This document shows positions 1,107-58,584 of a DNA stretch of 64,000 nt, piece by piece. Made by a program: the position numbers and the translations under genes. This stretch comes from Chiloscyllium plagiosum (lineage: Eukaryota): the NCBI RefSeq assembly GCF_004010195.1, contig NC_057756.1, positions 839,805 through 903,804 of the forward strand, given 5' to 3'. Within the stretch, counting starts at the first letter, position 1, and every line of letters begins with the position of its first letter. The notes beneath the pieces were generated by a model. It ran no database searches and was not told the DNA's origin. It was given only the letters and a program-made list of their open reading frames with translations.

Positions 1107-1121
1107 AAGAAGCTAAAAAGG
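1107..1121 (+). CDS. Micro-exon 1 (15 nt, phase 1-1) of unnamed coiled-coil gene: (E)EAKK
   Basis: ttactttcaattctgattgcag|AAGAAGCTAAAAAGG|gtaagt: pyrimidine tract, AG and a perfect donor. Same size and similar sequence to the 15-nt exon at 44876. Confidence 0.75.
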
Positions 1122-1315
1122 GTAAGTGTATGTCTGCTGTGTAGTTTCTGCACGTAAGTTAAGGTAAGAATTCAAGTTGAAATTGTAAAATGCAAAAAAT
1201 TACAGTGTATTCTAACTGTTATTTCTTATGAAGTTGTAAATTGTTTCTCCAGTAACAGTTCCGAATTCTTTGTAATTGCAATTCTTTGGTGACTCAGAAT
1301 TGTTCATCAAGCACT

Positions 1316-1364
1316 ATTCCACATAACAACCAAATCCTAAATTCCACATAACAACCAAATCCTA
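1316..1364. repeat. Exact tandem duplication of 24 bp (attccacataacaaccaaatccta, period 25)
   Basis: Read directly at 1316-1339 and 1341-1364. Confidence 0.95.
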
Positions 1365-1809
1365 TTTCTTGAATTGAAGTGTTGTGCCTATTGTATGGTT
1401 AGTGATATTTCATCATTTCACTGCATTTTATTGAACATTCGACTGATCTATACAATAATGGAATATTTGAAGAATGCATGTGCCATGTCATGCGTTCATG
1501 TGGTGGCAACAACTGCAAATGAAAAAAAAACAACTCATGTTATACCAGTTCAGAATTAGATTGAGTCAGTTAGGTTCACATGCTTAGAGATGCACATTGC
1601 CTTGAGATACTTCACCACTGCTGACTAATTTATTATCGACAACGCTACTCAGTTTTGAAGCTGATGATTACAGGCTCAATCGTACACAAGCAACATAAAC
1701 AGGGAGCTATGTATTAGTCGAGTTGCCATTGGAATTCAGAAAAAAAAGATTGACTGGACTGTATGTGTCAAGTTTGTCTGGAGAAAATAAATCATTCGGG
1801 CTGCACTTG

Positions 1810-2106
1810 GTCGGCGTGGTGGCTGAGTGGTTAGCACTTCTCCAACACATATGCAAGGGATCTGAGTTTTATTCCACGCTTAGGCGATTGCTCAACTATG
1901 GTTTCCACTTTCTGCCTATGTCTGCGTGGGTTTGTGTCGGGTCATGTGGTTTGCTTCCACTGTTCAAAGGTGTGCAGCGGAAATGAATTAGCTAGAGATT
2001 TTCAGGGTAAGTATATTGTTCATTGTAAGTACTGTGGCGGGGTAAATGTTCTTTCAAAGGTACTTGAAGTTTCAATGGGACGTATGGCCTCAGCATGTTG
2101 TAGCGA
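1810..2106 (+). mobile_element. Degenerate HE1-like tRNA-derived SINE
   Basis: A-box-like head ggcgtggtggctgagtggttagcact and central tgtctgcgtgggttt...ccactgttcaaaggtgtgcag, similar to the copy at 16794. Confidence 0.75.
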
Positions 2107-2149
2107 TGGTACACAGACATATAAATATGCAAACTCTTTGACTGACCAG

Positions 2150-2538
2150 TGAAAATTGGCTTGCCGTGAACAGTAATAATCTTCTTGTTAGCGCATATCG
2201 GAAATATCCGGTCAAACAGTGGGTGATCAACAAAATGTATGCCGAGGTTGATTGGGTTGTGAAAAAGGTGTATAGCAAGTTTACTGTTATTGGTAGAGGA
2301 TTGAATTTCGGAGCCAGGAGATCATGTTGCAGCTGTACAAAACTCTGCTGCGGCAGCACCTGGAGTATTCTGTACAGTTCTGTTCACTGCATTACATAAA
2401 TGATGTGGAAATTTTGGAAAGGGTTCAAAGACGATTTACTTGCGTGTTGCCTTGTATGAAGGGAATATCTCATGGGGAAAGACTGAGAGACTTGAGGCTG
2501 TTTTCATTAGAGAGAAGAGGGTTGGGAGGTGGCTTAAT
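2150..2538 (+). mobile_element. CR1 LINE ORF2 C-terminal fragment (left part of a split host copy)
   Basis: ORF 2324-2557 LQLYKTLLRQHLEYSVQF...ERVQRRFT...LRLFSLERRGLGGGLI is a typical CR1 post-RT region. Confidence 0.85.
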
Positions 2539-4007
2539 CATCAATAGTCAGAAGTGAGATGCCAGAAGACTGAAGATTGGCTAACGTGGTACCATTATTT
2601 AAGAAAGGTGATAAGGACAAGCCAGGGAACTACAGACCAGTGAGCCTGATGTCAGTGGTGGGCAGGTGGTTGGAGGGAATCTTGAAGGACAGGATTTACA
2701 CATACTTGAAAAGGCAAAGATTGATTAAGGATAGTGAACATGACTTTGTGCCTGGGAAATCATGTCTCACGAACTTGATTGATTTTTTTTTTGAAAAGCT
2801 AACGAAGTAGTTTGATGAGGGCAGAGCAGTGGACATAATCTATATGGACTTCAGTAAGACATTCAACAAGATTCCCCATGCGAGATTGGTTACCAAGGTT
2901 AGATCTTATGGAATACATGGAGAATTAGCTCTGTATTTGGATACTGAACTGGCTCGAAGGTAGAAGACAGAGGGTGGTGGTGGAGGGTTGTTTGCCGTAC
3001 TGGAGACCTGTGACCAGTGGTGTGTCAGGGAACGATGCTGGGTCTACTACTATTCATCATTTATATAATTGATTTGGATATGAACATAGGTGGTATCATT
3101 AGTAAAAGTTTGCAGATGACACTAAATTTGGAAGTTAGTGGACAATTACCTCAGATTTCAATGGGAAATTGATCAGATAGACCAATGGACTAAGGAGTGT
3201 CAGATGGAATTTAATCTAGATAAACAGGAGGTGCTGCATTTTGGGAAAGAACATCTTAGCAGTACTTATACACTTAATGGTAAGGTCCTGTAGAGTGTTG
3301 CTGAACAAAGAGATCTCGGAATGCAGGCCCCAACTCCTTGAAAGTAGAGTAACAGGTAGATAGAATAGTGATGAAGACATTTGGTATGCTACCTTTATTG
3401 GTCACTGCATTGAGTATCAGAGTTGGCAGATCATGATGCGGCTATACAGGTCGTTGTTTCGTCCAGTTTTGGAATACTGTATGTAATTCTGGTTTCCTTC
3501 CTACTGGAAGGATGTTGTGAAACTTGTAACAGTTCAGAAAAGATTTACAAGGATGTTGCCGGGGTTAGAGGGAGAGGCTGAATAGGCTGGGACTGTTTTC
3601 CCTGGAGTATCAAAGGCTGAGGAGTGACCTCATATAGGTTTATAAAATCATGAGGTGCATGGATAGCATAAATAGAGTAGGTCTTTTCCCTAGGGCGGGG
3701 GAGTCCAGAACTAGAGGGCATTGGTTTTGGGTGAGAGCAGAAAGATAAAAAAAGGGAGCTGAGGGGCAACCTTTTCACATAGAGAGTGGTGCATGTACAG
3801 AATGAGTTGTCAAAGGAACTGTTGGAGGCTGGTACAACTGCAACATTTAAAATACATCTGGTTAGGGTATATGAATAGGAAGGATTTGGAGGGATATAGG
3901 CCAAGTGCTGGCAAATGGGACTAGATCAGGTTGGGATGTCTGTTTGGCATGGACTAGTTGGACCGACGGGTCTGTTTCCGTGCTATGCATCTCTATGACT
4001 CTATGAC
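2539..4007 (+). mobile_element. 5'-truncated CR1 LINE (RT to 3' tail) nested inside another CR1
   Basis: ANVVPLFKKGDKDKPGNYRPVSL...GKSCLTNLIDFFEKLT, FADD-coding sequence near 3110, and a 3' tail ctctatgactctatgac. Confidence 0.9.
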
Positions 4008-4009
4008 AG

Positions 4010-4340
4010 TAATTGAGATATATAAGCTAATGAGCGGGTGAGATAGGGTGGAACCCTTTTCCTCGGATGGTGATGACTAGCTCGAAGAGACGTAGCTTTA
4101 AATTGAGGGGTGATAGACATAGGGCAGATGTCAGAGGTAGTATTTTTTTACTCAGAATGTGGAACACCCTGCCTGCACCAGTAGTAGATTCACCAACTTT
4201 AAAGACAGTTATATGGTTATTGCATAAACATATGGATGAAAATGGAAGAGTATTGGATAGACAGGTTTCAGATTGGTTCAGCAGGTCGGAGCAGCATCGA
4301 GTGCCAAAGGACCTGTACTGCACTCTAATGTTCTACGTCA
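4010..4340 (+). mobile_element. CR1 3' end (right part of the host copy split at 2538)
   Basis: Resumes with taattgagatatataag (LIEIYK), then ...RMWNTLPAPVV..., and ends in an atgttcta-type tail. Confidence 0.8.
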
Positions 4341-6273
4341 ACTTGGCATTAACCCAGGTCAGTTGTGTTAAGATAGAGACGATTTGTTTTTTTTCCATAA
4401 ATTTGAAAATTTAAATGTAGCAAATGTGATCAGGGCATAACATATTTTGCAGGATATTGACACGAAGTGTTAGCCAATTGCAGATGTGTTTGTTATGGAG
4501 ATAAGGAAATACTATCTAAAACATGAAAGATTATCTGTTCTGGCACGTGTGGTACCACTGCAGATGAAAAATAAAGGAAAGGTATAAGATCAAAGACCAG
4601 TCCTCCAGTCAAAACAGAATCTGGAAATTGTTTCTCTTTAAATTGCCATTACATTGTGATGACAAACAAATGCCTATGACTTATTAGCGCAACTTCAAGT
4701 TGAAATAATTAAAATGTCAACTGAACCTCTGAGGCAATGCTATGTCAGCAAAATGTCAAACAGACTGATTTTTTCCAGGAAGACTATGAAATGTCATTCA
4801 ATGCTCTTTTGTTTCAATGAGAAACTTTTCCTGACAGATTGCAATGGTATATTTAACTAGATGGTGAAATCATAGAGCTGAGTATACGGCTTACAGAATG
4901 TTATTTTGCTGCTAACTGCACCATGACAATTTATCGTGGTTTACAGGGTAAAAGACAATGGGCTACTTTCATGTTTAGAAAAGATATTACCTAACTTGCC
5001 TTTAAGCTCTCCTTCCTTTATGTGCATGTTGAATAATCCAATAAAAGTTCTTATGAATTACTGTCTACTACATTTTTTTTCTTCATTTCTGGCTGTAAAT
5101 GTGGGGATTCGAGAAAGTCTACATGCTTTAATATTGGTGTGAAGATGTATAGCTTTAATGTCGACATTAATTTAAGTATAGCAATTGAATTCGCATATTT
5201 AGGCTTGGGAAATAACCAACTGCTTAGTATTTTCAATATAATCTTCAACATCTGCAAATTTGTAATCCATACCAATCAATCTGGAAGAGAATTCCAAACA
5301 GTGTGTTTTCAATGCTGTACAATTATCCTTTTACATTTCTCCTTCTGAGTCTTTCTACATGTTAAACACATTTTTGTTATGGCTAACTGCATGTACCAAA
5401 TTTATAACAGTTTCTGATTGGCTTCTTTAATGTCCAGCTCACCAGTTTCTTACCGAGAATTCAAATCGTAAAACAAAAACCCTGTCTAAAATGGAAGCAA
5501 GCAGTAAAAAAAAAAGTATGGCTAATTGCAGCTCTTTCACAATCGGTAACTAATCACTTATCAGCATTGTAATGGTTGAATTCTTAAAAACACTAACTGT
5601 TGTGGATCTGTTATGTTCCAAGCAACTGAAAAGAGTTCTTAGCATGTGTAGCTCACATAAATTCCAACAATAGCTTCAACTTTATGATAGAACAAAACTC
5701 TTGTAGAACATTTTAATTGCTATTGTATGGCTCCTTTCTCATCCCTAATGGCCACATGACTTTAAGTTGCATTATTCAAAAACATTAAGTTCAAATTTGC
5801 ACTCATATGCTTAAATTCCTCTTAGCAAGTTATATCCTACAGCAATTATTGGTTGCACCTTTTTCTGATGATTCATGTCCACCTCCTATCAAGTGTTCCT
5901 TTATCATATGCTCAAATGCATTGTAACCTTTTAGATGTACTATTGCTGAGAAACGGCTGATTGCCAAATATGTCATTGCAAGTTACTATTTTTCTTCTCG
6001 TGTCTTTAGGTACCATGTTATTCACATTGATCTTGACAACATTCTGTATTACTTCATAGGAAACAACGATCACTTTGCACAAAGTATGATTGCTGTTACT
6101 TAATTTGCACTTGTACAACTGATCGTTGTTTTATTGCTTTTCTTCCCTTAAATCTTTCATTCACGTGACTGAACTGAATGCTATTTCATTGGACAGTTTA
6201 CTCTGACAATCGTCTATGAATAGGGCGGAGTGATTTGATTTTCTGGTTGTCTTGCATCATCCCTCTATTTAAG

Positions 6274-6300
6274 AGCTTGAACTACAGAACGACAAAAAAG
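6274..6300 (+). CDS. Candidate micro-exon (27 nt, phase 1-1): ELELQNDKK; non-canonical GC donor
   Basis: catccctctatttaag|AGCTTGAACTACAGAACGACAAAAAAG|gcatta. Size, phase, position after a 15-nt exon and the ELE start match exon 46141, but the AAG acceptor and GC donor are weak. Confidence 0.35.
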
Positions 6301-6629
6301 GCATTATGCTGATGCCAATGAAGAAAGCAGCTGTCCATTCCAATCAGAAATTCGCACAACAGATTTGCATTCTTGTAAGATAAAGCAATTCAGCTGCATA
6401 TCAGTTTCGTTTTTAAAGCAGTTTCAATTCCTCATGCAAAAATATAAACTGAGCATTGGACGCCATTTTCCCACAATCATCTGGGAATAATATTTCCTCA
6501 GACTTCCTGTAATCAGTCAAGCAATTACAATCAGTTACACTAAACGGACAGAGTGTATTGACAGGTTTAGCAATCAAACTTCAAGTACACTAGACATATG
6601 AATGACAAGGAGAAGAGGGACAATTACTG

Positions 6630-9147
6630 TAGGACTGGAAGCGTTATATCTGAACACAGTATAAGGAATAAGTTAAATGAGCTTGTGGCACAGATCAAAA
6701 TTGACGTGGTGGGATCACAGAGACGTCGTAGCAGGGGGCTTAGGATTGGGATCTGAATAATCAAGGATGTACATCCTTTTGAAAAGATAGGCAAGTGGGA
6801 AGAAGGGTTGGGTTTGCTACATTAATAAGCAATAAAATTAAATCAATAGTAAAAAATAAACTAGGGTCAGATGGTATAGAATCTGTGTGGGTAAAATTGA
6901 GGGAAGGAAAAAGTAAAACAACATTGGAGTTACGTACAGGTATTCAAATAATAGTCAGGAGCTGGGATGCAAGATACAAGAGGACGTAGAGAAGATGTAA
7001 AGGGAAGTTAAAGATGCAGTGATCTTGGGGGATTTAAAAGTGCAAGTGGACTGAGAAAATCAGATTGGTAGTGGATTGCAGGAAAAGGAATTCGTGGAGT
7101 GTCTTCGAGATGGCTTTCTGGAGCATTTTGTGGTGGACTACACTAGGGAACAGGCAATACTGGATTTAGTGTTGTGCAATGAGGCAGACTTGCCAAGGGA
7201 CTTTAAGGTGAAGGAACCCGTAGGAGGCAGTGATCATCATATGATTGAACTTGCTCTGCAATTTGAGAGCGAGATGATAAAATCAGAGGTAATGGCATTA
7301 CAGCTGAAAAAATGCAACTACAGAGGCATGTGGGGGCCCTGGATAGATTGACTGGGAGAGGAGCCCATCAGGAAAAACAATGGAACAGCAATGGCAGGTG
7401 TTACTGGGAACAATTCAGGAGGCACAGCAGGGATTCATCCGGATGAATAATAAGCATGGTAAAGGGAGGATGAGGCAACCATGGCTGACTTGGGTATCAG
7501 AGACAGCTCGAAAGCAAAAGAGACAATATATTTTGTGGCAAAGAGCAGTGGGAAGCCAGTGGATTGGGAATCTTACAAAGACCAACAGAAGGCAACAAAA
7601 ACACACACAAAGAGAGAGAAGATTAAAATGAGGTTATGCTAGCCAGTAAAAGACAGGAAGACTGTAAGAATTTCTTTCAAAAGCGAGGCAAAAATGGTCA
7701 TTAGGCCATTGGAGAATAACGCTGGAGAAATAGTAGTGGAGAACAAGGAAATGGCTGAGGAACTGAATAATTGATTCGCATCTGTCTTCACAGTGCAAGA
7801 CATGAGAAATATTGCAAAAATTCAAGAGTTTGAGGGGGAAGAACCAAATATGATGGCCATCACGAAGGGGACGTTGCTAGAAAATCTGGATGTACTGAAG
7901 GTGGATAATCTCCTGGACAAGATGGACTACACTCCAGAGTTCTAAGGAGATATCTGAAGGTATAGTGGAGGTTTTAGTGGTGATCTTGCAGGAATGGCCA
8001 TAATCATGGAGGGTCCCAGAGGACAGGAAAATCACTAATGGGTCAATCCTTTTTAAAAAGGGAGCGAGTCAAAAGACAAGAAATTACAGACCAATTAGCT
8101 TAACGTTCACAATGGGTAAGAACCTGGAATCATTTGTGAAGTATGAGATTTTTGAATACTTGTACGTGCATGTATGGTAAAATTGGGCAAAATCAGCATA
8201 GTTTCATTAATGGGAAGTCATGTGTGGCAAATCTGATAGAATTATTTGTGGAAGTAACGAGCAGATTATACCAAGGAGAGTCAAAGCATGTTATCTACCT
8301 GGACATCAAGAATGACTTGACAAGGTGCTGTACAGGAGGCTACTGAGTAATGTAGGTCCATGATGTCAGAGCAAGGGGCTAGCATAGATGGAAGCTTGGC
8401 TGTCTGGCAGAACGCAGAGAGTGGGGACAAAAGGTTCCTTCTCAGGGCAGCAGCTGATGACAAGTGATGTTCAGCAAGACTCATTGTTTAGAACGCAATT
8501 TTCATTTTAAAAGTAACCGTATAGGTGAAGGAACTGAGTGAATTCTGGTTACTTTTGCAGACGATGAAAAGATAAGGAGAGGACAGGTAGCATTAAGGAA
8601 GTTATGTGGCTGCAAAATAATTTGGACAGGTTAGAAAAGTAGACGAAGAAGGGGTAGATGGAGCACAATGCAGGTAACTATGAGGTCATGCAGTTTCGTA
8701 GGGAGAGTAGAGGCAAGGACTGTTTTCCAAATGGAGAGAAAATTCCGAATCCTGTAATTCAAAGAGACTTTGGATTTCGAGTTCTGGATTTTTCTCAAGG
8801 CAAACTTGCAGGTTGAGTCAGTCGTTAGGAAGGCAAATGCAATGATGATATTTGTTTTGAGAGGCCTTGAATACAAAAGCAAGGATATACTCTGGTCAGC
8901 CAACATTTGGAGTATTGTGCGCAGTCTTGGGACCATATCTCAAAAAGGATGCGTTGGCTCTGGAGTGTATTCAGAGGGCATTCACAAAAATGATCCTAGC
9001 AATGGAAAGATAACATATGAGAAATGTTTGAAAACTCTGGTTTTCTACCTGATGGAGTTTTGAAGGATGAGGGGAGATGTAATTGAAACATACAGAATAT
9101 GGAATGGCCTGAACAGCGTAGATTTTGGGAAGATGTTTCTATTTTCA
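6630..9147 (+). mobile_element. Decayed CR1 ORF2 (APE endonuclease through RT)
   Basis: Fragments SIRNKLNELVAQI, ESVWVKLR, TREQAILDLVLCN...GGSDHHMIE, QHSFINGKSCVANLIELF and VRKANAM, with many stops and frameshifts. Confidence 0.9.
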
Positions 9148-9149
9148 GC

Positions 9150-9335
9150 ATATGGTCCGGTTTCCTCCCAAAGTCTAAACGTTTGCAGGTTACGTGGGTT
9201 AACCATGTTCAATTTCTGCACAGTATGCTAAAATTTGCAACTTATTTAGATTAATCAGTTATGCCTCAAAGGGTCTGTGCAGACTCAGTAGGCAAAATGG
9301 CCTCCATATGTGTTGTAGGGATTCCATAATTCTAG
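9150..9335 (+). mobile_element. HE1-like SINE, 3' half
   Basis: tccggtttcctcccaaagtctaaacgtttgcaggtta...tgcagactcagtaggcaaaatggcctcc...tgtagggattcc. Confidence 0.7.
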
Positions 9336-10673
9336 GTCTAACCGTGTGTCACATGTTCAAGCTTTTCAGATTAAAGTATTCCAAGAATGTCGTTGTTCGA
9401 CGAGACTTTAAATTATTGGCACCTGACGAACATTTATGCCTACCCACTTATCATTTTCATCCTCTTACTTCAACATTCAATTTCACAGCAATCATAAAAA
9501 AGGGACAGATTGTCACCTTTGATGTATTGATTCATTATATTCCATCTTTTTCCATTTTTTTTTTCTCAGCGAAAACATTGCAAGCTGCTTCAATCTTTCT
9601 TACATTCGTGTTGGTAACGACTGCTGGCTCTTTGTTCTCCTCTCATTGAATCACATTGACTTCGTGACATCCGAACTCTTGCATGGAATGTATCATCTTG
9701 GATTGATGTTTCCGATTGCAGATACGTCTGGCTTTTCCAGGAATTCAAGATCCTACCGCATGTTTGGTTTGCACTTCTCGTATTGTTTGCCCAACATTTC
9801 AGGACGGTTTGAGGCCACAAAGCAATGGTCACTATTCTTCATGTTGATTGCAATTTAAGAAGCAGATACACAAAGGATTTTCCTGAATGATTTGCTTAAC
9901 TCCCATTGACTGTATGACTGTCACTTCTTCCAACACAGTATGCAGGGGAATAAACATCATCAAACTTCAACTGTGCGTGAAATTCTCAACATCACACCTC
10001 CAAGAAATATGAAGCGATTTCGAGCTGTAAAAAGTATTAGTTTATGGAACTTTAATTCCCTTTAAATTTAGTTCAAGTTCAAAGTTTGTTAGTTCAAGTT
10101 TCTTCTTCTTATGTCTCCTATTTCATTTATTGACAATTGTAGCATGTTTTAGGGTTATCATTCTTTTATGTCATATCCTTGGACATTCTTTATAGATTTC
10201 ATCACTATTTGCAACTTTCAAAGGAATTATCGAGTTAGATTTAGCTGATTGGTTATTAATTGCACAGGACTTATTAAGCAGTTCAATAATTTCAGCAAGT
10301 GGCATGCATGACGTTTTCTTCCATTGTATCTCACTGTTATATCACAGACTTTCACCTTTCTTTTTCTACAACCCAAATTTGTGTTGTTTATTTGTTCCTG
10401 CTGCCGTTTGTCGTGCTACTTTATAATGACTCTTTCTTTCTCAGACTCTGAGATTTACTTACCTGCCATAGCAAATTCTAGGCGTTCAGGCACTATTGTT
10501 CTAAAGTTCTCTGGCCAGCTGTGCTTTGCTGCTTGATCTCCAAGGATCATCAAAACACATTTCCTAGATTTAATGAACAGAGTTTGGAAGTCCACATAAT
10601 GGAGAATTAATAAAGCATACTGGGGGGTGTTGAATAGGAAGTACTGACATTGTGTCACCTTTTTATGTTTCAG

Positions 10674-10709
10674 AATTAAGTGACTGCCAAGATAAAGTAA
10701 AAGATCTAG
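10674..10709 (+). CDS. Micro-exon (36 nt, phase 1-1): ELSDCQDKVKDL
   Basis: Branch-like tactgac, then tgtcacctttttatgtttcag|AATTAAGTGACTGCCAAGATAAAGTAAAAGATCTAG|gtgggc. The donor is identical to that of exon 34018. Confidence 0.85.
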
Positions 10710-11139
10710 GTGGGCAATTACTTCGCATCCACAAGCAGATTTTCACGGACAAATACTATTCCAGCTCAACCCATTCCTAAGCAGATTCAACGATCATTCA
10801 GAAAATATAAAGCAATATTCAGTACTGAGTGATGAACATTGCTTTATATATGCGGTAGGTCTTTAAATTTCATTCGTAAACTGAAGTGATAACAGTGGCT
10901 AAGAAAACCTGAATATATTTTAAAAATCACCACGCGATCCTTGATGCTTAACTAATCGCTGTGGGCCAGCCACACATTGAGCACTTCGATGAATCTAATT
11001 TGAATCTTCATTGTCTAAAGAGAACTACCACAATTTATGGCAAATTATTATTAAGAATCGTAAGTTTCTCATGCCAGTGAATAGTTGCAGTTTGCAGTTT
11101 TTCCCATTGTCTAACAACCTCTGTTATTCATACACTAAT

Positions 11140-12600
11140 ATATTGAACATGCCGGAAATAGTCCTGAAAATGTGTGCTCAAGAACTTGCCGCTCCCCTAG
11201 CCAAGCTCTTTCAGTACATTTACAACACTGGCATCTACTGACAATGTGGAACATTGCCCAGGTATATCTGCACACAAAAGGCAGGACAAATCAAATTCAG
11301 CCAATTACCACCCAATCAGTCTACTATCCAGCATCAGTGAGTGATGGAAGGGATCATCAATAGTGCTATCAATTAGCACCTGCTCAGCAACAACTTGCTC
11401 AGTGACACCCAGATTGGGTTTCGCCAGAGTCACTCAGCTCCAGATCTCATGACAACCTTTGTTCAAAAATAGACAAAAGAGCTGAATTCCAGAAGTGAGG
11501 TGAAAGTGACAGCCCTTGATATCAAGGCAACATTTGACTGAGTAATGTATTAAGGAGTCCGGGCAAAACTGGAATCAATGGATATCAGGGGGGAAACACT
11601 CCACTGTTTAGAGTTATATCTGACACAAAGGAAAATGGTTGTGGTTTTGGAGGGTCAGTCATCTCAACTGCAGGACTGTAAGAGTTCATCAGGGTAGTGT
11701 CCTCGGCCCTGTAATCTTCAGCTGCTTCAGCAATGACCTAAGGTCAGAATTGGGGCTGTTTGCTTATATTGCACAGTGTTCAGCATCATTTGTCACTCCT
11801 CAGTTACTGAAATAGTTCATGATCAAGTGCAACAAGATCTGGACATTATCCACGCTTGGGCCGACAAATAGAAATAAACATTTGTGCCACAGAAATGCCA
11901 GACAATGATCTTCACAAATAAGAGGTACTCTAACAAAGCTCTTTGCATTCAATGTTGTTACCATCACTGAATCCCCCACTATCATCATCCTTGTGGTTAT
12001 CATTCACCAGAAACTCAACTGAATTCATCACATAAACACAATGGCTACAAGAGACTAGGGATACTGTCACGAGTAACTGACCTCCTAACACCACAAAATC
12101 TACCAACCATCTACAAAGCACAAGTCAGGAGTGTGATAGAATACTCTCCACTTGCCTGGATGGGTGCATCTCAATCAAAACTCAAGAGGCTTGACACCAT
12201 CCAAGACAAAGCAACCTGGTTGATTGGCTCCACATATAAAACATTCAATCCCTCCATCACCGGCGCTCACTATCTACTAGATTCACTGCAGAAATTCGCC
12301 AAAGATCCCAGATAGTACCTTCCAAACCCACGAACGCTTCCATCTAGAAGGGCAAGGGCAGCAGGTACTTCGGAACACCAAGCCACTCACGACATTTTCT
12401 TGAAAATATATCGCCGTTCCTTCATAGTCATTGGGTAAAAATCCTGGAATTCCCTTGTTACCAGCATTGTGGATCAACCCACAGCAAGTGGACTGCAGAA
12501 ATTCAAGAAGGAATCTCTCCACCATCTTCTCAAGGGCAAATAAGGACGGGTTATCAATGCTGGCCAACGAGAGACGCTTAAGTCTCACAAAAGAATTTTA
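11140..12600 (+). mobile_element. CR1/L2-group LINE (distinct subfamily): RT and 3' end, decayed
   Basis: VLKMCAQELAAPLAKLFQY, ALDIKATFD and IEYSPLAWMGASQSKLKRLDTIQDKA; 3' end ggactgcagaaattcaagaagg...cttctcaagggcaa. Confidence 0.85.
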
Positions 12601-12720
12601 AAGAATCATCTTTATAAGCACTATAATAACCACATGGAATTACATGGAGACTTCATCCTTTTAATAATACCCTTTACAATTTTATTTAAAAAAGATGCTT
12701 TGTCTATTCTATGTTCATAG

Positions 12721-12747
12721 AGTCAAAGATAAAAGAAAAACAGACAG
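12721..12747 (+). CDS. Micro-exon (27 nt, phase 1-1): ESKIKEKQT
   Basis: ctttgtctattctatgttcatag|AGTCAAAGATAAAAGAAAAACAGACAG|gttgtt. It keeps the heptad register between the 36-nt exons on either side. Confidence 0.8.
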
Positions 12748-25670: not shown

Positions 25671-25680
25671 GAATCTACAT

Positions 25681-46140: not shown

Positions 46141-46167
46141 AATTGGAAGCAAAGGAGAAACTTGATG
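46141..46167 (+). CDS. Micro-exon (27 nt, phase 1-1): ELEAKEKLD
   Basis: ttgttcccacgattattcag|AATTGGAAGCAAAGGAGAAACTTGATG|gtaaga. Confidence 0.82.
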
Positions 46168-46731: not shown

Positions 46732-46758
46732 ACGAAGAAACTCGGGAAAAAGACTCAG
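46732..46758 (+). CDS. Micro-exon (27 nt, phase 1-1): DEETREKDS
   Basis: tttataatttattaaattttag|ACGAAGAAACTCGGGAAAAAGACTCAG|gtaaca. Confidence 0.82.
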
Positions 46759-48288: not shown

Positions 48289-48324
48289 AAATAGCTGCTT
48301 TAAATAAAGAATTACAAGATTCAG
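48289..48324 (+). CDS. Micro-exon (36 nt, phase 1-1): EIAALNKELQDS
   Basis: ttttgttttctgtattccctacag|AAATAGCTGCTTTAAATAAAGAATTACAAGATTCAG|gtgagc. Confidence 0.9.
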
Positions 48325-48887
48325 GTGAGCAAGAGAAGCAAACTGAACGCCGGTACTCACATGACTGTTTAGTCCCAACAGTTAATCTGACATGCTACAT
48401 CGTCACAGTCAATCTGTGCCAAACGATTTTATTTTTGCCTGTCCTTCAAACATATCACTTCAAATAACAAAATAAATCAAACATACATTGAAAGTGAATG
48501 CGAAAGTCACAGAATAATTCCCAGTTTACAAAAAAAGGTAATAGGTTAAATAAAAAAATATTTTTCCAAAATCGATTGAAATTTTAGAATCTGACCAAAA
48601 ATACTCTCCACGACGTTAGAGGAAACGATAAGATCGAAACAGGGTTCCATTTTCAGTTGGCGATGGGCCTAAAAAAAGGTAAATGAAGTAAAATTAAGTA
48701 TCAGACTGCAAAGCGTTGTAGTTTGCCGACAATTAAAAAAACTGTTGCTTGTGTGAACTGCGGGAACTTCTCTGACAGTGCTATTTGGTTCTGATTGATT
48801 TTAAATTTTGTAGTAATTTTAAAAAATATATATAATGAAGACACATCTCTTTCTTTGTCTTAGCAGTTCGCATAGCGAACAGATGAG

Positions 48888-49240
48888 TATAGAATTCATA
48901 CAGTGCTGCAAGTGACGATTTGGCTGAAGAGACAGCAGCGGCACTCTGGAGAGCTCCCCAACACCCCAGACCCATACTACACCTTATATCGAAAATCCCA
49001 CTTTAACCATGCTAATTTACCTAGCGTAGACATTTAAGGATATAACGAGCAACTTTGCATGGCTAATGCAAATAACCTGCACATTTTTGAATATGGGATA
49101 AAGTTCGAACACTTGGCAGAAACCCTTGCAGACATGCACAGACCATGAAAACTCAACACAGAATGTGACCCACTTTTATAATAGAACCCGTGTCCTTGGT
49201 AGTGTGAGGCAAGAGTGCCAATCATTGTGCTACCACTGCT
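48888..49240 (-). mobile_element. HE1-like SINE, near full length, decayed
   Basis: Reverse complement of the head (gtgtgaggcaagagtgccaatcattgtgctacc) and the body (gcatggctaatgcaaataacctgcacat, gaaacccttgcagaca). Confidence 0.75.
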
Positions 49241-49974
49241 AGCAATTACTGGAATTATCGATACTCGTGAAAAAGGTAAAACATTGGAGAAAGAAGCCAG
49301 ATGCTGTGTATAACCAATAATTAAATCTCGATTTCTTTTTTTTTCCGGGGTAGGTCGCGGTGGCTGTGGTGGAAAGAGTTGAACTACATCGAAACCACAC
49401 TCCTTCCTTATCATTTTTCACCTGTGCAGGCTTCTGCTTGACACACACTGTTCACCGTCATGTCCACCTCCCCATTCATCTGTATTTTATATCCCTCCAG
49501 TCCAAAACCTACGTGCTCATTTCTGTCTGCTTAATTTTCATTTTGCTTTCCTTGTATCTCGCTCCCTTATCTTCCATTAATTACTTCCCACATGATCTTG
49601 ATGACTGTCCATTTTTCTCTTTTTCATCTCCATCTCCCTTATGATGGATTTGATGGAAGCTTTTTTTTAAGAAAAAAAGAACAAATGAAAGACATATCTA
49701 TAGCCAATTTTTCAGCAACTGAAATTACACACGTGAGATGTCTGTTAGGTCACAAGCAGCAAAATGAGAAGATATATTAAGGATCTCACAAGCTTTCGAG
49801 TCCAGTTTAAGCTGTATGCAATCATTTCACCCACTGAAATTGCGGCACATCCAAGAAAAATGTCATTGTGCGGTATGAGCAGTATAACGATATAAAGTTT
49901 GGGAAATCCGACCTACAATATAGACATGGATCTTAAATCATAACCTGTAACTCCAGGTCATTATTACAATCAAA

Positions 49975-50390
49975 AGGTTGAGGGGCGACCTAATAGACTT
50001 TTTCAAGATTGTGAATAGCATTGGTAGAGTGAAAAATATAAGCCTCCTTTCCCAAGGTGGTGTGGTTAATTGCTATGATTTGGAGATGCCGGTGTTGGAC
50101 TGGGGTGTACAAAGTTAAAAATCACACAACACCAGGTTGTAGTCCAACAGGTTTAATTGGAAGCACACTAGCTTTCCTAGCGGTGCTCCTTCATCACCTG
50201 AAATCAGTGTGTGATTTTTAACTTGGTTAATTACTCGGGGACACAAGTTCAATTTGGGAGGGAGGAAGTTTAAAAGAGATGTGAGAGTCTCATTTTCCAC
50301 ACAAAGGGTAGTGAGAGCCTACTATGAACGGCTAGAGGAGGTGATGGAAGCAGCCACAACAGCAGCATTCGAGAAGCATCTGGAGTAGTC
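49975..50390 (+). mobile_element. CR1 3' fragment split by a short Penelope-type insertion
   Basis: RLRGDLID-coding start; continues after 50223 with ggacacaagttcaa...ttttccacacaaagggtagtg. Confidence 0.7.
50075..50223 (-). mobile_element. 149-bp Penelope terminal-repeat insertion with an inverted tip and a 12-bp TSD
   Basis: tggttaattgct (50063-50074) and tggttaattact (50224-50235); gttaaaaatcacac is inverted as gtgtgatttttaac at the right end. Confidence 0.8.
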
Positions 50391-51599
50391 ATGCGTTTGA
50401 AAAATCCTTCGAAATCGTCCAGTCAATGTCAAAATATCCTTCCTTTTTTTTCAAAAACAAGGTCCCTTATCTATTCATTCCCATGTTTATACCCCAAAAG
50501 TTGTCAAGAAATTATTTTTCCATTGTAAGCAATTTATTATCATTTGAATACATTTCGAGATGTTCCTGACCTGACAGCCAAAAGGCAACATACTACTCTG
50601 CACACACATGCCAAAGAAATGTTCCTATTGTCAATTATTATTTTCATTCTCAGTAATAACACATTAATCCTTATATTCATTTCTTTGTAAATCTTTATGC
50701 ACAAGACCATGTCGTAAAAAAAAATTGGTTTATCGTCGCGAATCCATCCATCCTATCTTCCTGGTTTGTCAGCAAGATTTCCCTGCTGATATTTAGCAAT
50801 TTTCAAACCTTTATGACCTGTACCTCACATTCTGACAAGTTATTTTACCTCATCGGGTGCAGCAATATAGTTCTGATGCTTAACCTATTTTTATTTTATG
50901 TACATTTTTCAGAGTGAAATGTACAGAATCTCCAACTCCTCCATTGTCAGACCCAATTGGGAGCAGTATTCCGTTATTGCAGATTAGTACAAAAGTCAGG
51001 AAATTACTTTTTTTTGCATTATTGGCTCGGCTGCAGCATCCTGGGTAATATGCTTTAGTGTGGTCTCAATACCCCTGTGTCATTCAAGAGCATGTTCATC
51101 AAAAATAGATATCCAGACAGGAATAATGGGGTGGTGGTGGTGGTGGGGGGGGGGGGAGTGGGGAGTGGGGAGGGGGGTTGGGAATGCCAACAATAACTAC
51201 CCTGTGACAAATATTCAAATGGAGAGTTTCAATTCAAACTGTAACAGTCTTGGTCAAGTCATGATCTCGAATCAAATAATCTCTTCAACTGGTTACCCAA
51301 TGCCATGGCTCTTATGCAAATTACAAAAAACTAATTTCAATGCCACTACTAACAATGCGTACCCTTCTATAGTGTACAGGATGAAATAATCAACTTACAT
51401 CTCCTCACTGTTAAGATTCTGTTCTATTCTCTCAGTTTTTCTGGTTAGGTTCCATCTACTTTTTTAAGATGCCATCTTCTGCTGAGGGACCTCGTAAATA
51501 TACTGCTTTTTCTACAACCGAGGATTTTCCAATACTTTGGTTCAGCGGGCTTTTATTCGTGTATGATCCATTTCCTGAATTTCAGCCCCGATTTACTTC

Positions 51600-52570
51600 T
51601 CTTCCCACTCACAACACTGATATTGTCATCGTGGTATTCTCTTCTCACCCCACAAGTATTCGCATTCAAAGGATCATACTTTGCCATTTTCGCCACCTTC
51701 AATGGAATGCCATTACGAAATATATACTTGCTCTCCTTCCTCTTTGTAACATTTTGCAGGGACAGTTCCCCAATGGCCGCTCCTAATCGTCTCCTATCTC
51801 ATACGCACATACTTACAGCACCCTAACATGCAGTCACAGAGATGTACTACCTATCAGTTCACACTTTCCCTCTTACTATTGAAGGCACTAGACACAACTT
51901 CCAATTTATTTTCGATTTTCCCGTTCTTCCCTTCAACTTACCTACTGGATTTTCTGTCCTCGGTGCCAACTGCTTTGCACTTGGAGTACGAAATGCAGAA
52001 GCAAGAACGACCTGAATTTCCAGTTCCCTGGTACTTCAACACATAATTGGTTTGGTTGCCAACCTTTATATCTCAAGCTTATTGCAGCACTCCAGACAGG
52101 CCCAGGACAAGCCAGAAGAACAGCATCCTATTTTCAGCTTCGGGAGCCTGCAGCCTCAGGGCTCATATACCAGTTTAATAATTTTGAAGCGTGAACACCT
52201 TCTTCTATATAGTTTCCCCAACCCCTTACTCGTGGCCATCTCGTGACTTAGGCTGCTTTAAGTGTGATCAACCCATCTCCATTTGCTCTTGGTGCTCATT
52301 ATCAACTCCTTTTTTTCCTTTTTTTTCCTCTGTTGCCGTTTTCATTCTTGTTTCTTGGCTTAACTGTGCTTTTTCGCACTCTGGATTCCATCTCCACCTA
52401 TTTGTTCACGTCTTCCATGCACAATGACACCCGTCTTTAACATACATAACCACACTTTCCTCACTCCAATGGTAACATGAACAATGGTCCCTGGGCATTT
52501 CATCTGTTTCCTCTCCGCAGCTGCCACTCAGCCTGCATAAAGTCTGTAACAGTTACGTTTTTATTTCAAG
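51600..52570 (+). mobile_element. Decayed Penelope-like element 3' region
   Basis: HPTSIRIQRIILCHFRHLQ and EEQHPIFSFGSLQPQG motifs, followed by a pyrimidine-rich tail and a terminal-repeat remnant. Confidence 0.7.
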
Positions 52571-52712
52571 TATCAACCAGCTGATGTGCTTCCTTTCATT
52601 TACCTCAAACAGTTGATCCTCACTTCCTTGCGCCCCATGCTTTTGACATTGATGGACTATTACTTCAAATTAATTTCATTCTCCCTGCACACTGCTCTAT
52701 GTTGCCAATGCA

Positions 52713-55700
52713 AAGAACATAGAAAATTTACAGCCCACGAACAGGCCATTCGGCCATTCAAGCCTGAGTCGATACAAATCCACCGTCTAAACTTGTCACC
52801 CAATTCCTAAGCATCTGTATCACTCTGCTTCCCACCTACCCATGCATCTATCCAGACACATCCTAAATGAATCTACCGTACTTGCTCTACTACCTCTGCT
52901 GGCAACGCATTCCAGGTACCTACCACCCTTCATGTAAAGGACTTGCCGCATATATCACCCTTAAACCTTTCACGTCTCACTGTGAAAGCGTGACCTCTCA
53001 TTATTGAATCCTTCACCCTTGTAAAAATGCTTATCTCTATCAACCCTGTCTATACTCTGCATGATCTTGTAGACCCCAAACAGGTCCCCCCTCAATCTCC
53101 TTTTTCTAATGAAAACAAACCTAATCTACTCTGTTCAAAGGTAGCACCGTCCATGCCAGGCAACATCCTCATAAACCTTCTCTGCATCCTCTCCAAAGCG
53201 TCCACATTCTTTTGGTAATGTGACGACCAGAATTGTACACAGTATTCTAAATGTGGTCGAACCAATGTCGTGTACAATTTTAATATGACCTTCCAGCTCT
53301 TACACTCAATATCCTGTCCGATGAAGGCAAACATATCAATGCCTTCTTGACCACTCCATCCACCTGTGCAGCAACGTGCAGGGTAAAATGGACATGAACT
53401 TCCACATCTCTCTGCTCATCATTTTTTCCAATGCTCTTCCAATTACTGTAAAAGTCACTCTAGAGTTAGACTTCCCAAAATGCATCGCCTCACATTTGCC
53501 TGTATTGAAGTCCATCTGCCACTTCTCTGCCCAACTCTCCAGTCTATCTATATTCTCCTGTATTCTTTGATTGCCCCCTATGCTTTCGGCTACTCCACCA
53601 ATCTTCGTGCCATCTGCATACTTACTGATCATATCAACAATGCCCTCTTCCAGATCATGCATGTATATCACAAGCAACAGTGGCCCCAGCAGTGATTCCT
53701 GTGGAACAACACTGGTCACCTTTCTCCATTTCGAGAAATTCCCTTCAGCTACTGTCTCATGTTGCTCAACCAGTTTTTTATCCACCTAGCTAGAACACCC
53801 TGCACACCATATGACTTCACCTTCTCCATTAGTTTACCATGGGGAACCTTATTAGACACCTTACTAAAGCCTATGTATATGACATCTACAGCCCTTCCTT
53901 CATTTCTCAACTTGGTCATTTCCTCAAAGACCTCTATTAAGTTGGTATGGCACGATCTCCCCCACACACAACCGTGTTGCCTAGCACTGATACGCTCATT
54001 CTTTTCCAAACATAAATACCTTCTTCAGCAATTTTCGCACCACTGAAGTCAGGCTCGCTGGTCTGTAGTTACCCGGAATATCCCTACTACACTTCTTGTT
54101 CAGTGGGACAACATGAGCAACCCTCCAGTCCTCCAGCACCTCATCTGTGGTTAAGGATGCTACAAAGATATCTGTCAGGGTCACAGCTATTTCCTCCATC
54201 CCCCCTCCGCCTCAGCAACCTGAGATCGATCCCATCTGGTCCTGGGAAGGTGCCCACCTTTATAACCTCAACCTACCCAACACATCTTCCCTACTTATGT
54301 CAACGTGATCCACAGTAATCAAACTTCTAACTCTAATCTCAACATTCTTTATGTCCCTATCCTCAGTGAACACTTATGCAAAGTAATCATTCAGAATCGC
54401 ATCCATTCTCTCAGGTTTGACACACAGCCTTCCTTCATTATCCTTTAGTGGACCAATCCTTTCGCTAGTTACCCACTTGCTTCTTATATAAGAATAAAAG
54501 ACTTTTGGATTCTCCTTAATTCTGTTCGCTAAAGCTATTTCATGACCTCTTTTTATCCCGCCTGATTTCTCACTGAAGACTGGTCCTACTCTTCTGATAT
54601 TCCTCCAAGGTCAGTTCTGTTTTTAGCTGCCTGGCCTTTATGTATGCTTCTCTTTTCCTCTTGGGTAGTCAAACGATTTCTTCTGACATCCATGGTTCAC
54701 TAATCTTGCTTTTCCGATCCGTTGCTTTCAACGGGACATGCCTATCCTGCACTATCTTGAACCTATCTTTGAAAGCCGCCCACATATCAAATGTGCACTT
54801 CCTTTCAAATAGCTGTGTCCAATCCACATTTCCCATCTCCTGCCTAATTTTGATATAATTGGCCATGGCCCAGTTTAGTATTCGTCCCTTAGGACTACGC
54901 TAATCTTCGTCTACCAATATTTCAAAACTTAAGAATTGTTGTCACTGTTCCCAAAGAAATCCCCCACCACAACTTCTACCACCTTGCCTGCCTCATTCCC
55001 CAACACCAGGTCCAATATGACGACTTCCCTTGTCAAACTATTGACATAATGCTCTAGAAAACTTTCCTGGATGCCTCTTACAAATTCTGCACCACCCAGA
55101 CCGCACACACTAAGTGTATCCCAGTCAATGTTGCGAAAATTAAAATATCCCATCACCACCACCCTGTTGCCTCTACATCTTTCCATAATCTGCTTACTCA
55201 TTTGTTCTTCTACCTCATGCTGTCTATTGGGAGGGCTGTAATAGATCCCCAGCAATGTAACTGTACCCTTCTTATTTCTCAGCTCCACCCATAATGCCTC
55301 ACTACAAGCCCTCCATAGTGTCCTCCTTTAGCACAGCCGTGATATCATCCCTGACCAGCAATGCAACTCCTCCTCCCTTCTTTTACTTCCCTCACTGTCT
55401 TGTCTGAAGCGTCTAAATCCTGGAACATTTAGTTGCCAATCATGCCCTTCCTTCAACCAAGACTCTGTGATTGCAATGACGTCATACTCCCAGGCACCAA
55501 TCAAAGCCCTAAGTTCATCAGCCTTACCCAATATAGTCCTTGCATTAAAGTATGTGCATTTCATGCCATCAGTCCTTTTGCATTCATCTGTCCTTTGCTA
55601 ACTGTTCCCCTAATTAATGATATATTCATGATTCTTATAGTCTCCAGTTTCCACCACGCTGTCTACTTGTCTTCTCTTCTGGTTCACAGCCACCTGCCAC

Positions 55701-56930
55701 ATTAGTTTAAAACCTCCACAACAACCGTAGCAAAAACTCTACCAAGGGCATTAGTTCCAGTCTGGTTCACATATAGGCCATCCAACTTGTAATAGTCCCA
55801 CCTTCACCAGAACTGGTCCCAATGTCTACCAAATCTGAACTTCTCCCTCCTAAGCATCCCTCAAGCCACGTATTCACTTTGCCTATTTTTTTTTTCATTT
55901 CTACACTGGCTAGCACGTAGCACTGGTAGTAACCCTGAGACCACTACCTTTGAGTCCCTCTTTTTTAACTTCTCTCCTAGCTCCATGAATTCTGCTTTCA
56001 GGACCTCATCTCGTTTTTTACTTACATCGTTGGTACCTATATGCACCAAGACAACTGGGTATACATCGTCCCATTTTAGAATGCTCTGCAGTCGATCGGT
56101 GACATCCCCACCCGAGGACCTGGGCGGCAACATGACATTCGGGAGTCCCGTTTTCGTCCACAGAACCGCCTATCTACTCCACTTACAATAGAATCCTCCA
56201 TGACTATGGCCCTACGAGTCTTTTCCCCGCCCTTCAGAACAACAGTGCTCGCCACATTGCCATGATCCTGGCAACTGCAGCCCTCCGTGGTGAGCCATCT
56301 CCCTCAGTAGTATCCAAAATGGTATACCTGTTTTGGAGGGAGATGACCGCAGGGGACACCTGCACTGCCTTCCTACTCGTTTTCTGCCTTTTGGTCATCC
56401 ATTCACTGTCACCCTCAGCAATTCCACACTGCGGTGTGACCAGTTCACTAAACATACTATCCATGACCTCCTCAGCATCGTGGATGCTCCATGTGGTCAT
56501 ACAAGAGCTGCAGCTGGACACACTTCTTGCAAGTCTAAGAGTCAGGACAGTCAGCCACGTTCCTGAGCTTCCACATCAAGCAAGAGGCACATGCTACGGC
56601 TCTGAGGACCCCTGCCATTATAAGCCTTAGCTTTATAATAATACACTAAAACCAAACAATGCACTTAAATATATGAAAGTAAAGGAAGAGAAGAAGTAAA
56701 AATCTTACCTTATAGTCTTTTTCTTTTGGTTAGAGGAGGGGGTGGTGGTAAGGCGATACTACACGTGCAGTATCTCTGGTTTAGCCTATGCCCAACTATA
56801 TACTAAGTCCTTTTCTTCCCGGCAACCCCCTGGTCTCTACATCACCTCTGATCTGTCTCTGCTGCTCCCACACAGGAAAAAGAATATCATATGTCCTGGC
56901 ACCAGAGAGAAAAAAAACAGGCATGGTCTT
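52713..56930 (-). mobile_element. Near full-length CR1 LINE (5' UTR, ORF1 with SGNH esterase, ORF2 APE-RT, 3' tail), inactivated
   Basis: ORF1 VVLVHIGTNDV...KVVVSGLLPV; EN KCTYFNARTILGKADEL...IAITESWL and GNSDNN; RT GNYRPASLTSVV, VPQESLLGPLL, SKYADGTK and VRPHLEYCVQFW. The 5' boundary is approximate. Confidence 0.93.
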
Positions 56931-57322
56931 TAAAAAAAACATTTTTCTGTCACTTTAATTCTAATTCTGTCTTCATATAATTATTCCTCAGTTCACTTAT
57001 TTGAAATGGCCATTTTCATAAATTCCTCAGCATTCCCAAAATGATCAGGCGAGAAACTATAAGGTCTGTTTCATCATGCATTAAGTAAATATTCTTTATG
57101 ATCTAAGTTAGCCTCTCAGAAACGGTAACGAAACGAAAGGGGATGAGGATGGAAGTGAGTGATTTAAAAAAGAATGTTTTTCTGATGTAGAAACAACAAT
57201 GTTTTTTTTAATCAGTTGAACTGTAAGGGAAGAAAATGGATCCACGACCTATGTGATAGGATTCGACCAGCTATTTTTTTTAATGAACACATCTTGTTTA
57301 TTCTTTGTCTGAAAAAAAACAG

Positions 57323-57349
57323 AAGAAAGATTGAAACAGAAAGATAAAG
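57323..57349 (+). CDS. Micro-exon (27 nt, phase 1-1): EERLKQKDK
   Basis: tgtttattctttgtctgaaaaaaaacag|AAGAAAGATTGAAACAGAAAGATAAAG|gtaagt: perfect donor; an A-run separates the pyrimidine tract from the AG. Confidence 0.8.
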
Positions 57350-57611
57350 GTAAGTTCTCTGAATATTTTTTAAACAACATCAGAATTAAGTTGCTTTCAT
57401 TTCCCTCCAAGGCTCTTAATTGGCATGTTCACAAGTTTAACTAATTGCATTTTCTTTCAGATATCTTGTAGATTGATGCATGTTTTTATGGGCGGATGCC
57501 AATACTGAACAAAAATGTGATGAAGTGCTATCCTTACAAAGGTTGGGGGGTGCGGGGGAGGTGGGTTGGCATGCAAAAAATCAAATACGACTTGCACAGA
57601 TTCGTTCTCGG

Positions 57612-57720
57612 ATGGAGCTGATGAAGGTTACTGGTCTCAAAACATTAACGCTGATTTCTCTCCATATACGCTGCCAGGCCCGCTGAGCTTTTTCCAGCAT
57701 TCTGTGTGTTTTATTGAGAT
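57612..57720 (+). repeat. Penelope-terminal-type short repeat with decayed hammerhead motif
   Basis: ctgatgaaggttactggtctcaaaacattaac...gctgccaggcccgctgagctttttccagca. Confidence 0.6.
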
Positions 57721-58548
57721 TTTATAGTTTCTGTTTGAATACTTTGCCCAAACTGATGACCACTTCAGTTGGCTGGCTGGATCAATGCATCATTGAATAG
57801 TTCAACAATTCTGCTGAGTAATATGAGCATTCTTTAAACAAAACATATATTATGGAATTTTTCACCACCTGTATCAAGCGAAATTACAGTGCAAATTTCC
57901 CATTTTCTATATTATTTAATCTAAGCAAAACGAGCTGGTTACATATGCTCAAAAATGACACTGAAGAAATGGCTTTATTGAAATGTGGAAAATAATGATA
58001 AATATTGTCATTATGAATACACACCATCATGAAATTAGTAGTCTGCAGATAGATAATGACGTGGACTCTTCATATTGTTTTCATTGTGTTGATGGTCAGG
58101 AAACTCTGTCATTCTCATCTCTTGGGATTGCCATGTGCTGACATGATTGCTATTAACATTCAAACAGTTTGTCTGGGTAATAGACATACATTTTCTGCAC
58201 CATCAATTCCTGAGTTTGAAAATTGGAAAATAACTTTAGAAGGCCAGAGAAAGCCATGTGTGTGCTCTAATTTCAAGAGTAATCTATATCTGTTAACCAA
58301 ATGCTTAGTAACATGGAACATGGATTGCAAATCATTACAAAATGAAACTTATAAAACTAGTAAAGATTTCATTTTTCATCCAGATTTGATGTGGAGCTCC
58401 AAAAAACTATACGTAAAGGCAGCGAAACAAACACAATTTTCGCAGTTTCAATAGATTACTTTAGTTTGCAATAGCATAAGACATTTTTTGAATGCGTAAT
58501 AGACAAATGACTCATCTCACTTGATAACATGTATTATTCACTTGTCAG

Positions 58549-58584
58549 AGTTAGAAAAGTTGAAAACTCGTCTTGCTGATGTTG
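58549..58584 (+). CDS. Micro-exon (36 nt, phase 1-1): ELEKLKTRLADV
   Basis: gtattattcacttgtcag|AGTTAGAAAAGTTGAAAACTCGTCTTGCTGATGTTG|gtaaga; the ELEK start is shared with exon 15219. Confidence 0.85.

Follow-up and report, generated by a model that had tools for sequence, protein, structure and literature searches.

Micro-exons in the window and the predicted gene around them

The DNA analysed here is a stretch of 64,000 nucleotides (nt) from the shark Chiloscyllium plagiosum (contig NC_057756.1, C47 below, positions 839,805 to 903,804, forward strand), which we call the window. It carries 14 very small exons of a predicted gene, G1, that spans about 537 kb on the plus strand; the whole window (1..64000) is internal to G1, and both ends of the gene lie beyond it. 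Coordinates with a sign are window coordinates, and the C47 position is 839804 plus the window coordinate. Across the 824 kb of contiguous DNA scanned, the micro-exon array runs on the plus strand from -382,240 to +152,200. It is followed at +154,715 to +155,235, 91 kb past the window, by a plus-strand, phase-1 exon of 172 codons that encodes a B30.2/SPRY domain (Pfam SPRY, E 1.7e-16) and is the only SPRY exon in those 824 kb. An earlier reading of the window, the original prediction, had proposed a hidden micro-exon gene for a long coiled coil and had pointed downstream for B30.2 or lectin exons. The gene, the coiled coil and the B30.2 exon were supported, and we consider it highly probable that this is a real gene for a coiled coil with a B30.2 domain.

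The 14 window segments of 15, 27 and 36 nt that had been proposed, all on the plus strand, phase 1-1 and bounded by AG and GT, were recovered without exception by our segment scan. The 15-nt exons lie at 1107..1121 and 44876..44890. Those of 36 nt lie at 10674..10709 (with Leu, Cys, Val and Leu at positions 2, 5, 9 and 12), 15219..15254, 34018..34053, 48289..48324 and 58549..58584, and those of 27 nt at 12721..12747, 26868..26894, 29283..29309, 32608..32634, 46141..46167, 46732..46758 and 57323..57349. All 14 begin with A and 13 end with G; the exon at 29283 ends instead with Cys and base A, one of six such exons in the gene. Splice sites score poorly at the donors of 12721 (GTTGTT) and 32608 (GTTTTT, behind a strong acceptor) and at the A-rich acceptor of 57323, whose donor is strong. 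As proposed, the exons sit in non-repeat islands (none overlaps a repeat hit, against 41% of the window in repeats) and join into a stop-free 399 nt, or 384 nt counted from exon 10674. An assembly gap of 500 N at 33156..33655, within the intron between 32608 and 34018, could conceal a further exon.

Chance does not readily produce such a set. With an untrained splice score and a fixed filter that was derived from the observation itself, so that the test is post hoc, 13 segments pass on the plus strand versus 0.95±0.98 (maximum 4) in 100 block-wise Markov resamples; the same filter passes three segments on the minus strand of the window and two at six other sizes. The order of the 14 exons also carries information: periodicity at 3.5 residues is 6.87 versus 2.42±1.29, and 8 of 2000 order shuffles reach it. 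The heptad positions listed in the original prediction match the sequence, except that position 33 is Ala and that positions 41, 55 and 85 had been omitted. On a larger scale, the window holds one copy of a recurring cassette, a Cys-ending 27-nt exon together with 15-nt exons, that is found from -90 kb to +46 kb.

For the gene as a whole, 96 seed exons were used to train a scan model that ignores exon length; at threshold 7 it reported 156 hits, 135 of them with a size of 27 or 36 nt. Curation removed eight as repeat-derived or off-pattern and added by hand the window exon at 12721, which lies under the threshold of the trained scan. The resulting 149 micro-exons comprise 82 of 27 nt, 54 of 36, six of 15, five of 21, one of 24 and one of 33, and are separated by introns with a median of 2.5 kb (longest 18.7 kb), so that the window holds about a tenth of predicted G1, whose coding density is 0.9%. 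Spliced in order together with the last exon, they yield 1,642 residues with no internal stop: a rod of 1,469 residues, then the domain. Of the 148 junction codons, 105 are restored as Glu and 22 as Asp. Counts of phase-0 and phase-2 exons were disregarded, since they do not provide independent controls.

On either side, G1 is flanked by frames for seven-transmembrane (7TM) receptors, which we take to resemble GPR139, at -411,985 (plus strand, matching Pfam 7tm_1) and +218,100 (plus strand), with a further related frame at -451,205 (minus strand) and a probable first exon of one 7TM gene at -432,091. Between G1 and the downstream 7TM frame is an acidic open frame of 286 codons at +190,820 (plus strand), with a strong acceptor at +190,848. 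Three 21-nt exons close to the end of the array, at +150,016, +151,015 and +152,180 (L020), have identical acceptor sequences, and two of them have near-identical downstream intron frames; they stem from recent tandem duplication of a unit of about 1 kb directly ahead of the B30.2 exon. Within the window, about 36% of the sequence is covered by at least three repeat hits. LINE-type remnants about 80% alike lie 22.2 kb apart (3,507-3,970 and 25,734-26,211). The 11.6-kb intron between 15219 and 26868 contains pieces of a duplicated segment, 80-83% alike and spaced 5.25 and 6.24 kb (18,474-18,961 and 23,720-25,203).

Exon-size code and heptad register

Exon sizes in G1 follow a simple code, in which the commonest steps are 36 to 27 nt (44), 27 to 36 nt (43) and 27 to 27 nt (36). 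The 36-nt exons encode hydrophobic residues at positions 2, 5, 9 and 12, the first three at 91-93%, versus at most 6% at positions 4, 6, 7, 8, 10 and 11. In the 27-nt exons, position 4 is Leu and position 7 is mostly Lys. Given these positions, a pair of the two sizes amounts to 21 residues, that is, three heptads, with Leu, Ile or Val at 'a' and Leu, Cys or Lys at 'd' in the core.

The register is kept along the rod, in agreement with the long coiled coil that had been proposed. The Fourier peak lies at 3.515 residues, and local heptad power is 5.72 versus 2.08±0.29 when exon order is shuffled, a value equalled by none of 500 shuffles. Among the 53 steps between successive 36-nt exons, 31 are in exact heptad phase, 8 are stutters, 3 are stammers and 11 are other shifts, these last probably arising in part from missed exons. 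Exons, sizes, open frame, register and terminal domain can all be read directly from the DNA. A helical rise of 0.1485 nm per residue would make the rod about 218 nm long.

Two features of the core bear on how chains might pair. Ile and Val lie mostly at 'a' in the rod, which is the pattern of dimers. Cysteine is concentrated on the other core position, with 38 of the 49 rod Cys at positions read as 'd' and two at 'a'; the 'd' position is suited to interchain disulfides (our literature search gave no source for this). Within the 12-residue unit, position 5 is again Cys in 7 of 20 exons of the paralogue G2 and in ten modules of a chimaera protein, and core Cys are few in the paralogues G3, G4 and G5.

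The terminal domain, the family and the upstream end

The B30.2 domain of G1 is predicted to be mainly beta (predicted local distance difference test, pLDDT, 75), and its best sequence match in the PDB is BTN3A1 (E 3e-22). Our protein searches returned no protein more than 51% identical to this exon. With the single domain as query, the closest matches among 1.84 billion representatives were, where named, from chimaera, skate, rays and sharks. In a tree of 58 B30.2 domains, built with a quick method from hand-picked rows without mammalian sequences, a single branch (Shimodaira-Hasegawa approximate likelihood-ratio test, SH-aLRT, 100) separates the 14 rows of the family from 25 TRIM, 9 fish butyrophilin and 10 other rows. 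A probable DNA run (X1) over the exon showed three substitutions among the rows listed (two synonymous, one Thr to Ala) and no stop.

Searches of the same genome found five B30.2 exons of this subfamily, belonging to G1, G2 and G3 on C47 and to G4 and G5 on contig C37, and all five genes have a rod of 27- and 36-nt phase-1 exons on the sense strand. Scored with the model trained only on G1, two paralogues have 46 sense versus 2 antisense and 50 versus 0 exons at threshold 10, at which the flanks of G1 gave none in 169 kb and none in 88 kb; two further paralogues have 83 versus 4 and 28 versus 2 at threshold 8. Between G1 and G2, 44 pairs of exons of equal size line up in the same order (score 539 versus 308±21 shuffled). 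Their exons differ by 0.35 nonsynonymous (dN) and 1.67 synonymous (dS) substitutions per site, the dN being lowered because pairs were picked by protein similarity, and their intron flanks are 33-34% identical, so that conservation, judged from these alignments, lies in the exons and not in the introns. The corresponding score for G1 and G3 (284) is no better than the G1-G2 shuffles. The micro-exons of G4, predicted from this genome alone, map onto the catshark protein XP_038671249 (P0188) with 61 of 73 chaining in order (score 1202 versus 393±28, maximum 459 in 30 shuffles).

Predicted proteins of the same design occur in other cartilaginous fishes. Members of the family are XP_042192744 (chimaera, 'nuclear-pore anchor-like'), XP_038671249 and XP_038672308 (catshark), XP_055510696 (skate), XP_069775385 (electric ray) and XP_078422387 (basking shark), which share with G1 the B30.2 subfamily and the 12- and 9-residue rod modules. 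They differ from it in carrying automatic names taken from TRIM ligases or unrelated coiled-coil proteins, and at least one is truncated at its 5' end; several family names in RefSeq cite E3 ligases despite no RING being present. The chimaera protein (1,697 aa) consists of rod and SPRY, with neither V-set nor RING, and SPRY is the only Pfam family above cut-off, with no Ig or RING, in the six annotated relatives scanned. Atlas clusters of 1,277, 1,579 and 1,802 aa likewise have SPRY without V-set or RING, two under isoform-numbered names, and together count as one source of evidence. Thus, on sequence grounds, G1 is placed in a cartilaginous-fish group that combines a micro-exon rod with B30.2; named relatives came from chimaera, rays and sharks only, in keeping with the shark protein of the original prediction. 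The literature searched, in which most subscription journals and supplements were outside scope, held no paper that describes the family, judged by titles and opening lines of abstracts; these loci may be listed in the gene tables of shark genome papers.

Splicing has indirect support from the match of G4 to the catshark protein, from the Atlas clusters and from length differences among the models, all of which are predictions. Annotated isoforms of the relatives differ by 6, 9 or 18 residues, or by N-terminal truncation, and two chimaera models differ mostly by 9- and 12-residue blocks. Reads from RNA over the last three micro-exons of G1, the B30.2 exon and 4.4 kb downstream, in a thin sampling, fall in a few repeat-like bins only, and three RNA or probable-RNA runs (X5, about 2% read, X6 and X7) have no read on the B30.2 exon, which is uninformative either way.

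Several observations on the models and loci stand apart from this comparison. The RefSeq models P0017, P0056, P0157 and P0188 look unreliable at their 5' ends; residues 63-118 of P0017 match repeat DNA, and P0188 begins at an internal exon. A stingray match of 1,541 aa (P0001) proved to be three fused TRIM models and no relative. In G2, an identical 27-nt exon with its splice sites occurs twice, at C47:4,420,004 and 4,444,791, on either side of three assembly gaps, which reflects either a very recent duplication or mis-assembly. Contig C37 holds about 100 TRIM/butyrophilin-type B30.2 exons, several with stops, between about 9 and 34 Mb, a span that includes G4 and G5. Retrovirus-like env, integrase and RNase H frames lie within and upstream of G5 (C37:22.34-22.45 Mb; L194, L208-L213), and CALHM-like frames lie farther upstream.

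The original prediction had considered immunoglobulin (Ig) V, transmembrane and signal-peptide exons upstream; neither these nor an Ig-C exon was found between the upstream 7TM gene, which is on the same strand and ends about 29 kb ahead of the first micro-exon, and that micro-exon. Searches with tblastn found no Ig exon as far as -580 kb, a region in which assembly gaps remain, and with TRIMs as queries no RING or B-box match upstream of G1. Pfam found no Ig, RING or B-box in 97 of 100 upstream frames of at least 65 aa, the other three beginning upstream of the 7TM frame, and the 77 kb around the first micro-exon (-432 kb to -355 kb) held no convincing transmembrane or signal exon. In 49,294 frames from 1.95 Mb around the five family genes, the best E values were 0.096 for an Ig profile and 0.01 for a RING/B-box profile. 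The former was built from fish butyrophilins, with no BG sequence, and recovered held-out shark and ray butyrophilin-type proteins at E < 1e-33; the latter had no positive control, and its best value fell in another region. Upstream of G5, 98 of 114 frames were scanned and gave no Ig. Since the upstream searches gave no Ig, transmembrane, signal or RING exon, we do not file G1 as BG, butyrophilin or TRIM. The membership in the BG/butyrophilin group that had been entertained was not supported; the B30.2 domain, too, clusters not with the sampled butyrophilins but within a cartilaginous-fish family that lacks Ig and RING.

Two candidates for the start of the protein deserve mention. The first micro-exon, at -382,240, contains an in-frame ATG in the context AAAATGG. 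Some 470 bases ahead of it, a unique A-rich stretch at about -383,035 to -382,714 (L058:6965-7287), single copy in the genome, ends in a strong donor at -382,714, with a frame open from a Met 25 codons upstream, and is possibly the first exon. As upstream exons, candidates at -399,481, -382,714 and -380,802 were unconvincing or left undecided. Models from other species added three leads. The chimaera and skate models hinted at secretion and a furin site; this was rejected, the 'site' being an ordinary 12-residue module as in upstream G1 exons, and the skate leader may be intron read-through. A conserved N-terminus in ray and catshark models was also rejected, since in both paralogues the exons continue upstream beyond the point where the model begins. 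The N-terminus of the chimaera model matches nothing in this genome, nor other proteins beyond the older chimaera model, and its hydrophobic start may be a modelling artefact.

A proposed coiled-coil rod with a B30.2 head, and its place among known systems

How might such a gene work? We infer a single transcript and, from its product, the dimer, the location and the function, and on balance we favour a cytoplasmic two-chain rod, some 220 nm long and bearing B30.2 heads at one end, that acts as tether or scaffold and in which frame-neutral exons allow length variants. About 150 symmetric phase-1 micro-exons would be spliced into one transcript for a predicted protein of about 1,640 residues. 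Its basic unit, a 36-nt plus a 27-nt exon, would have been multiplied by duplication, with runs of 27-nt exons and 15-nt exons adding stutters and stammers. Two chains are expected to form a parallel dimer in which both B30.2 heads share one end, with the N-termini far away at the other. Since all exon lengths are divisible by three, skipping any one of them would leave the frame intact, and rod length may vary between isoforms in this way. As the searches yielded no exon for a signal peptide, a transmembrane segment, Ig or RING, the protein is predicted to be cytoplasmic and without ubiquitin-ligase activity of its own.

Several points weigh against this reading. The G1 transcript is predicted from sequence, the isoforms and relatives are RefSeq predictions whose RNA support is not visible, and the dN between G1 and G2 is lowered by the choice of pairs. 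The exon count of 149 is approximate, with eight hits dropped and one added; the strand count of 144 sense versus 8 antisense is partly circular, because the scan model was trained on G1 itself; and the phase steps of +5 and +2 between 36-nt exons (10 of 53) suggest missed or extra exons. At the upstream end, the start exon of G1 is not fixed, and relatives in RefSeq are unable to confirm it because their models can start at an internal Met: G4 extends at least 86 kb upstream of where P0188 begins, with about 30 additional candidate exons there. The DNA examined for G2, G3 and G4 stops short of their 5' ends. The chimaera model begins with 15 hydrophobic residues followed by basic ones, which would suit a membrane anchor, and Cys at 'd' may reflect a rod that is cross-linked by disulfides outside the cytosol.

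The last two points lead to different proteins. G1 could instead encode the hugely expanded cytoplasmic tail of a membrane-anchored butyrophilin- or BG-like protein, with signal, Ig and transmembrane exons farther upstream, in a gap or too divergent for our searches. Heptad repeats ahead of B30.2 are the layout of butyrophilin tails (excerpted text of PMC8813856), BG tails are assembled from 13-36 exons of 21 or 24 nt (excerpted text of PMC4046983), BTN3A1 is the best PDB match, assembly gaps exist upstream of G1, and the chimaera start has its hydrophobic stretch and basic cluster. However, tblastn as far as -580 kb, Pfam on 97 of 100 upstream frames and the fish butyrophilin profile all failed to find an Ig match, no convincing transmembrane exon appeared between -432 kb and -355 kb, and only about 29 kb separate the first micro-exon from the end of a 7TM gene on the same strand. 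The frames scanned upstream of G5 (98 of 114) are likewise without Ig, the B30.2 domains form a separate clade, and six annotated relatives have no Ig family, so we judge this explanation unlikely. A structural fibre, secreted or cross-linked by oxidation in a maturing cell such as a sperm tail or keratinised tissue, would account for the 38 of 49 rod Cys at 'd' (two at 'a') as disulfides that lock the chains, and for the recurrence of position-5 Cys in G2 (7 of 20 exons) and ten chimaera modules. Yet Cys is also a common small core residue, and no signal-peptide exon was found around the first micro-exon; the feature is not family-wide, since G3, G4 and G5 have few core Cys, nor are the counts independent, since the exons are duplicates. 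We therefore give the fibre distinctly little credence.

It is also conceivable that the array is not one working gene, comprising rather several partial genes or a silent relic whose window exons are seldom if ever joined to the B30.2 exon. A few weak splice sites would fit, as would the failure to find a protein more than 51% identical to the B30.2 exon, but exon order keeps heptad phase, G1 is collinear with G2 with exons conserved over introns, the B30.2 exon is intact with no stop in the DNA run, and 824 kb contain a single terminal exon, with relatives of matching length. This makes a relic or split locus very improbable. Returning to the cytoplasmic rod with paired heads, we can offer, as a rather doubtful extension, that the family is an undescribed class of adjustable molecular rulers in cartilaginous fishes, in which splicing sets how far the pair of B30.2 heads lies from the opposite end of a rod that disulfides can lock. 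If so, about 150 frame-neutral micro-exons would serve as interchangeable spacers for distances up to about 220 nm in half-megabase genes, and the class would be neither butyrophilin, BG nor TRIM and largely missed by gene finders.

Whatever its function, the family has consequences for annotation and for the study of coiled coils. Five genes have been missed, truncated or mislabelled as ubiquitin ligases, and some 150 exons shorter than 40 nt at 0.9% coding density present a difficult test for micro-exon splicing and for gene prediction. G1 is also a clean natural record of coiled-coil growth by exon duplication with the register kept.

Among known systems, TRIM (RBCC: RING, B-box, coiled coil) proteins with PRY-SPRY, such as TRIM21, TRIM39 and the shark 'A33/nuclear factor 7-like' proteins, resemble G1 in having a coiled coil followed by B30.2, and G4 and G5 share contig C37 with a large B30.2 cluster. 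TRIM proteins have RING and B-box, whereas neither was found in G1, whose rod is made from micro-exons and exceeds more than tenfold the length we take a TRIM coiled coil to have; the TRIM coiled coil is an antiparallel dimer. Butyrophilins (BTN1A1, BTN3A1 and the fish proteins P0002, P0085 and P0190) share with G1 the order of heptad repeats and terminal B30.2, as outlined in the excerpted text of PMC12841164 and PMC8813856. In the same excerpts they combine IgV, IgC and transmembrane parts with a short heptad region, whereas G1 has a rod of 1,469 residues, no ectodomain that we could find and a B30.2 domain in a separate clade. The closest likeness in gene structure is to chicken BG, including the BG-derived zipper protein, where a long heptad region, predicted to be a coiled coil, is likewise built from many tiny exons (excerpts of PMC4046983 and PMC8813856). 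Each 21- or 24-nt BG exon corresponds to one heptad, whereas 136 of the 149 exons of G1 are 27 or 36 nt, five are 21 and one is 24. BG proteins have Ig-V and a transmembrane segment and no B30.2, whereas in G1 neither Ig nor transmembrane exon was found and B30.2 ends the gene. Whether orphan B30.2 domains work with BG tails is a question that the excerpted text of PMC8813856 leaves open. In its predicted design, G1 joins the two within one gene, a micro-exon rod of BG type and a B30.2 head of butyrophilin/TRIM type.

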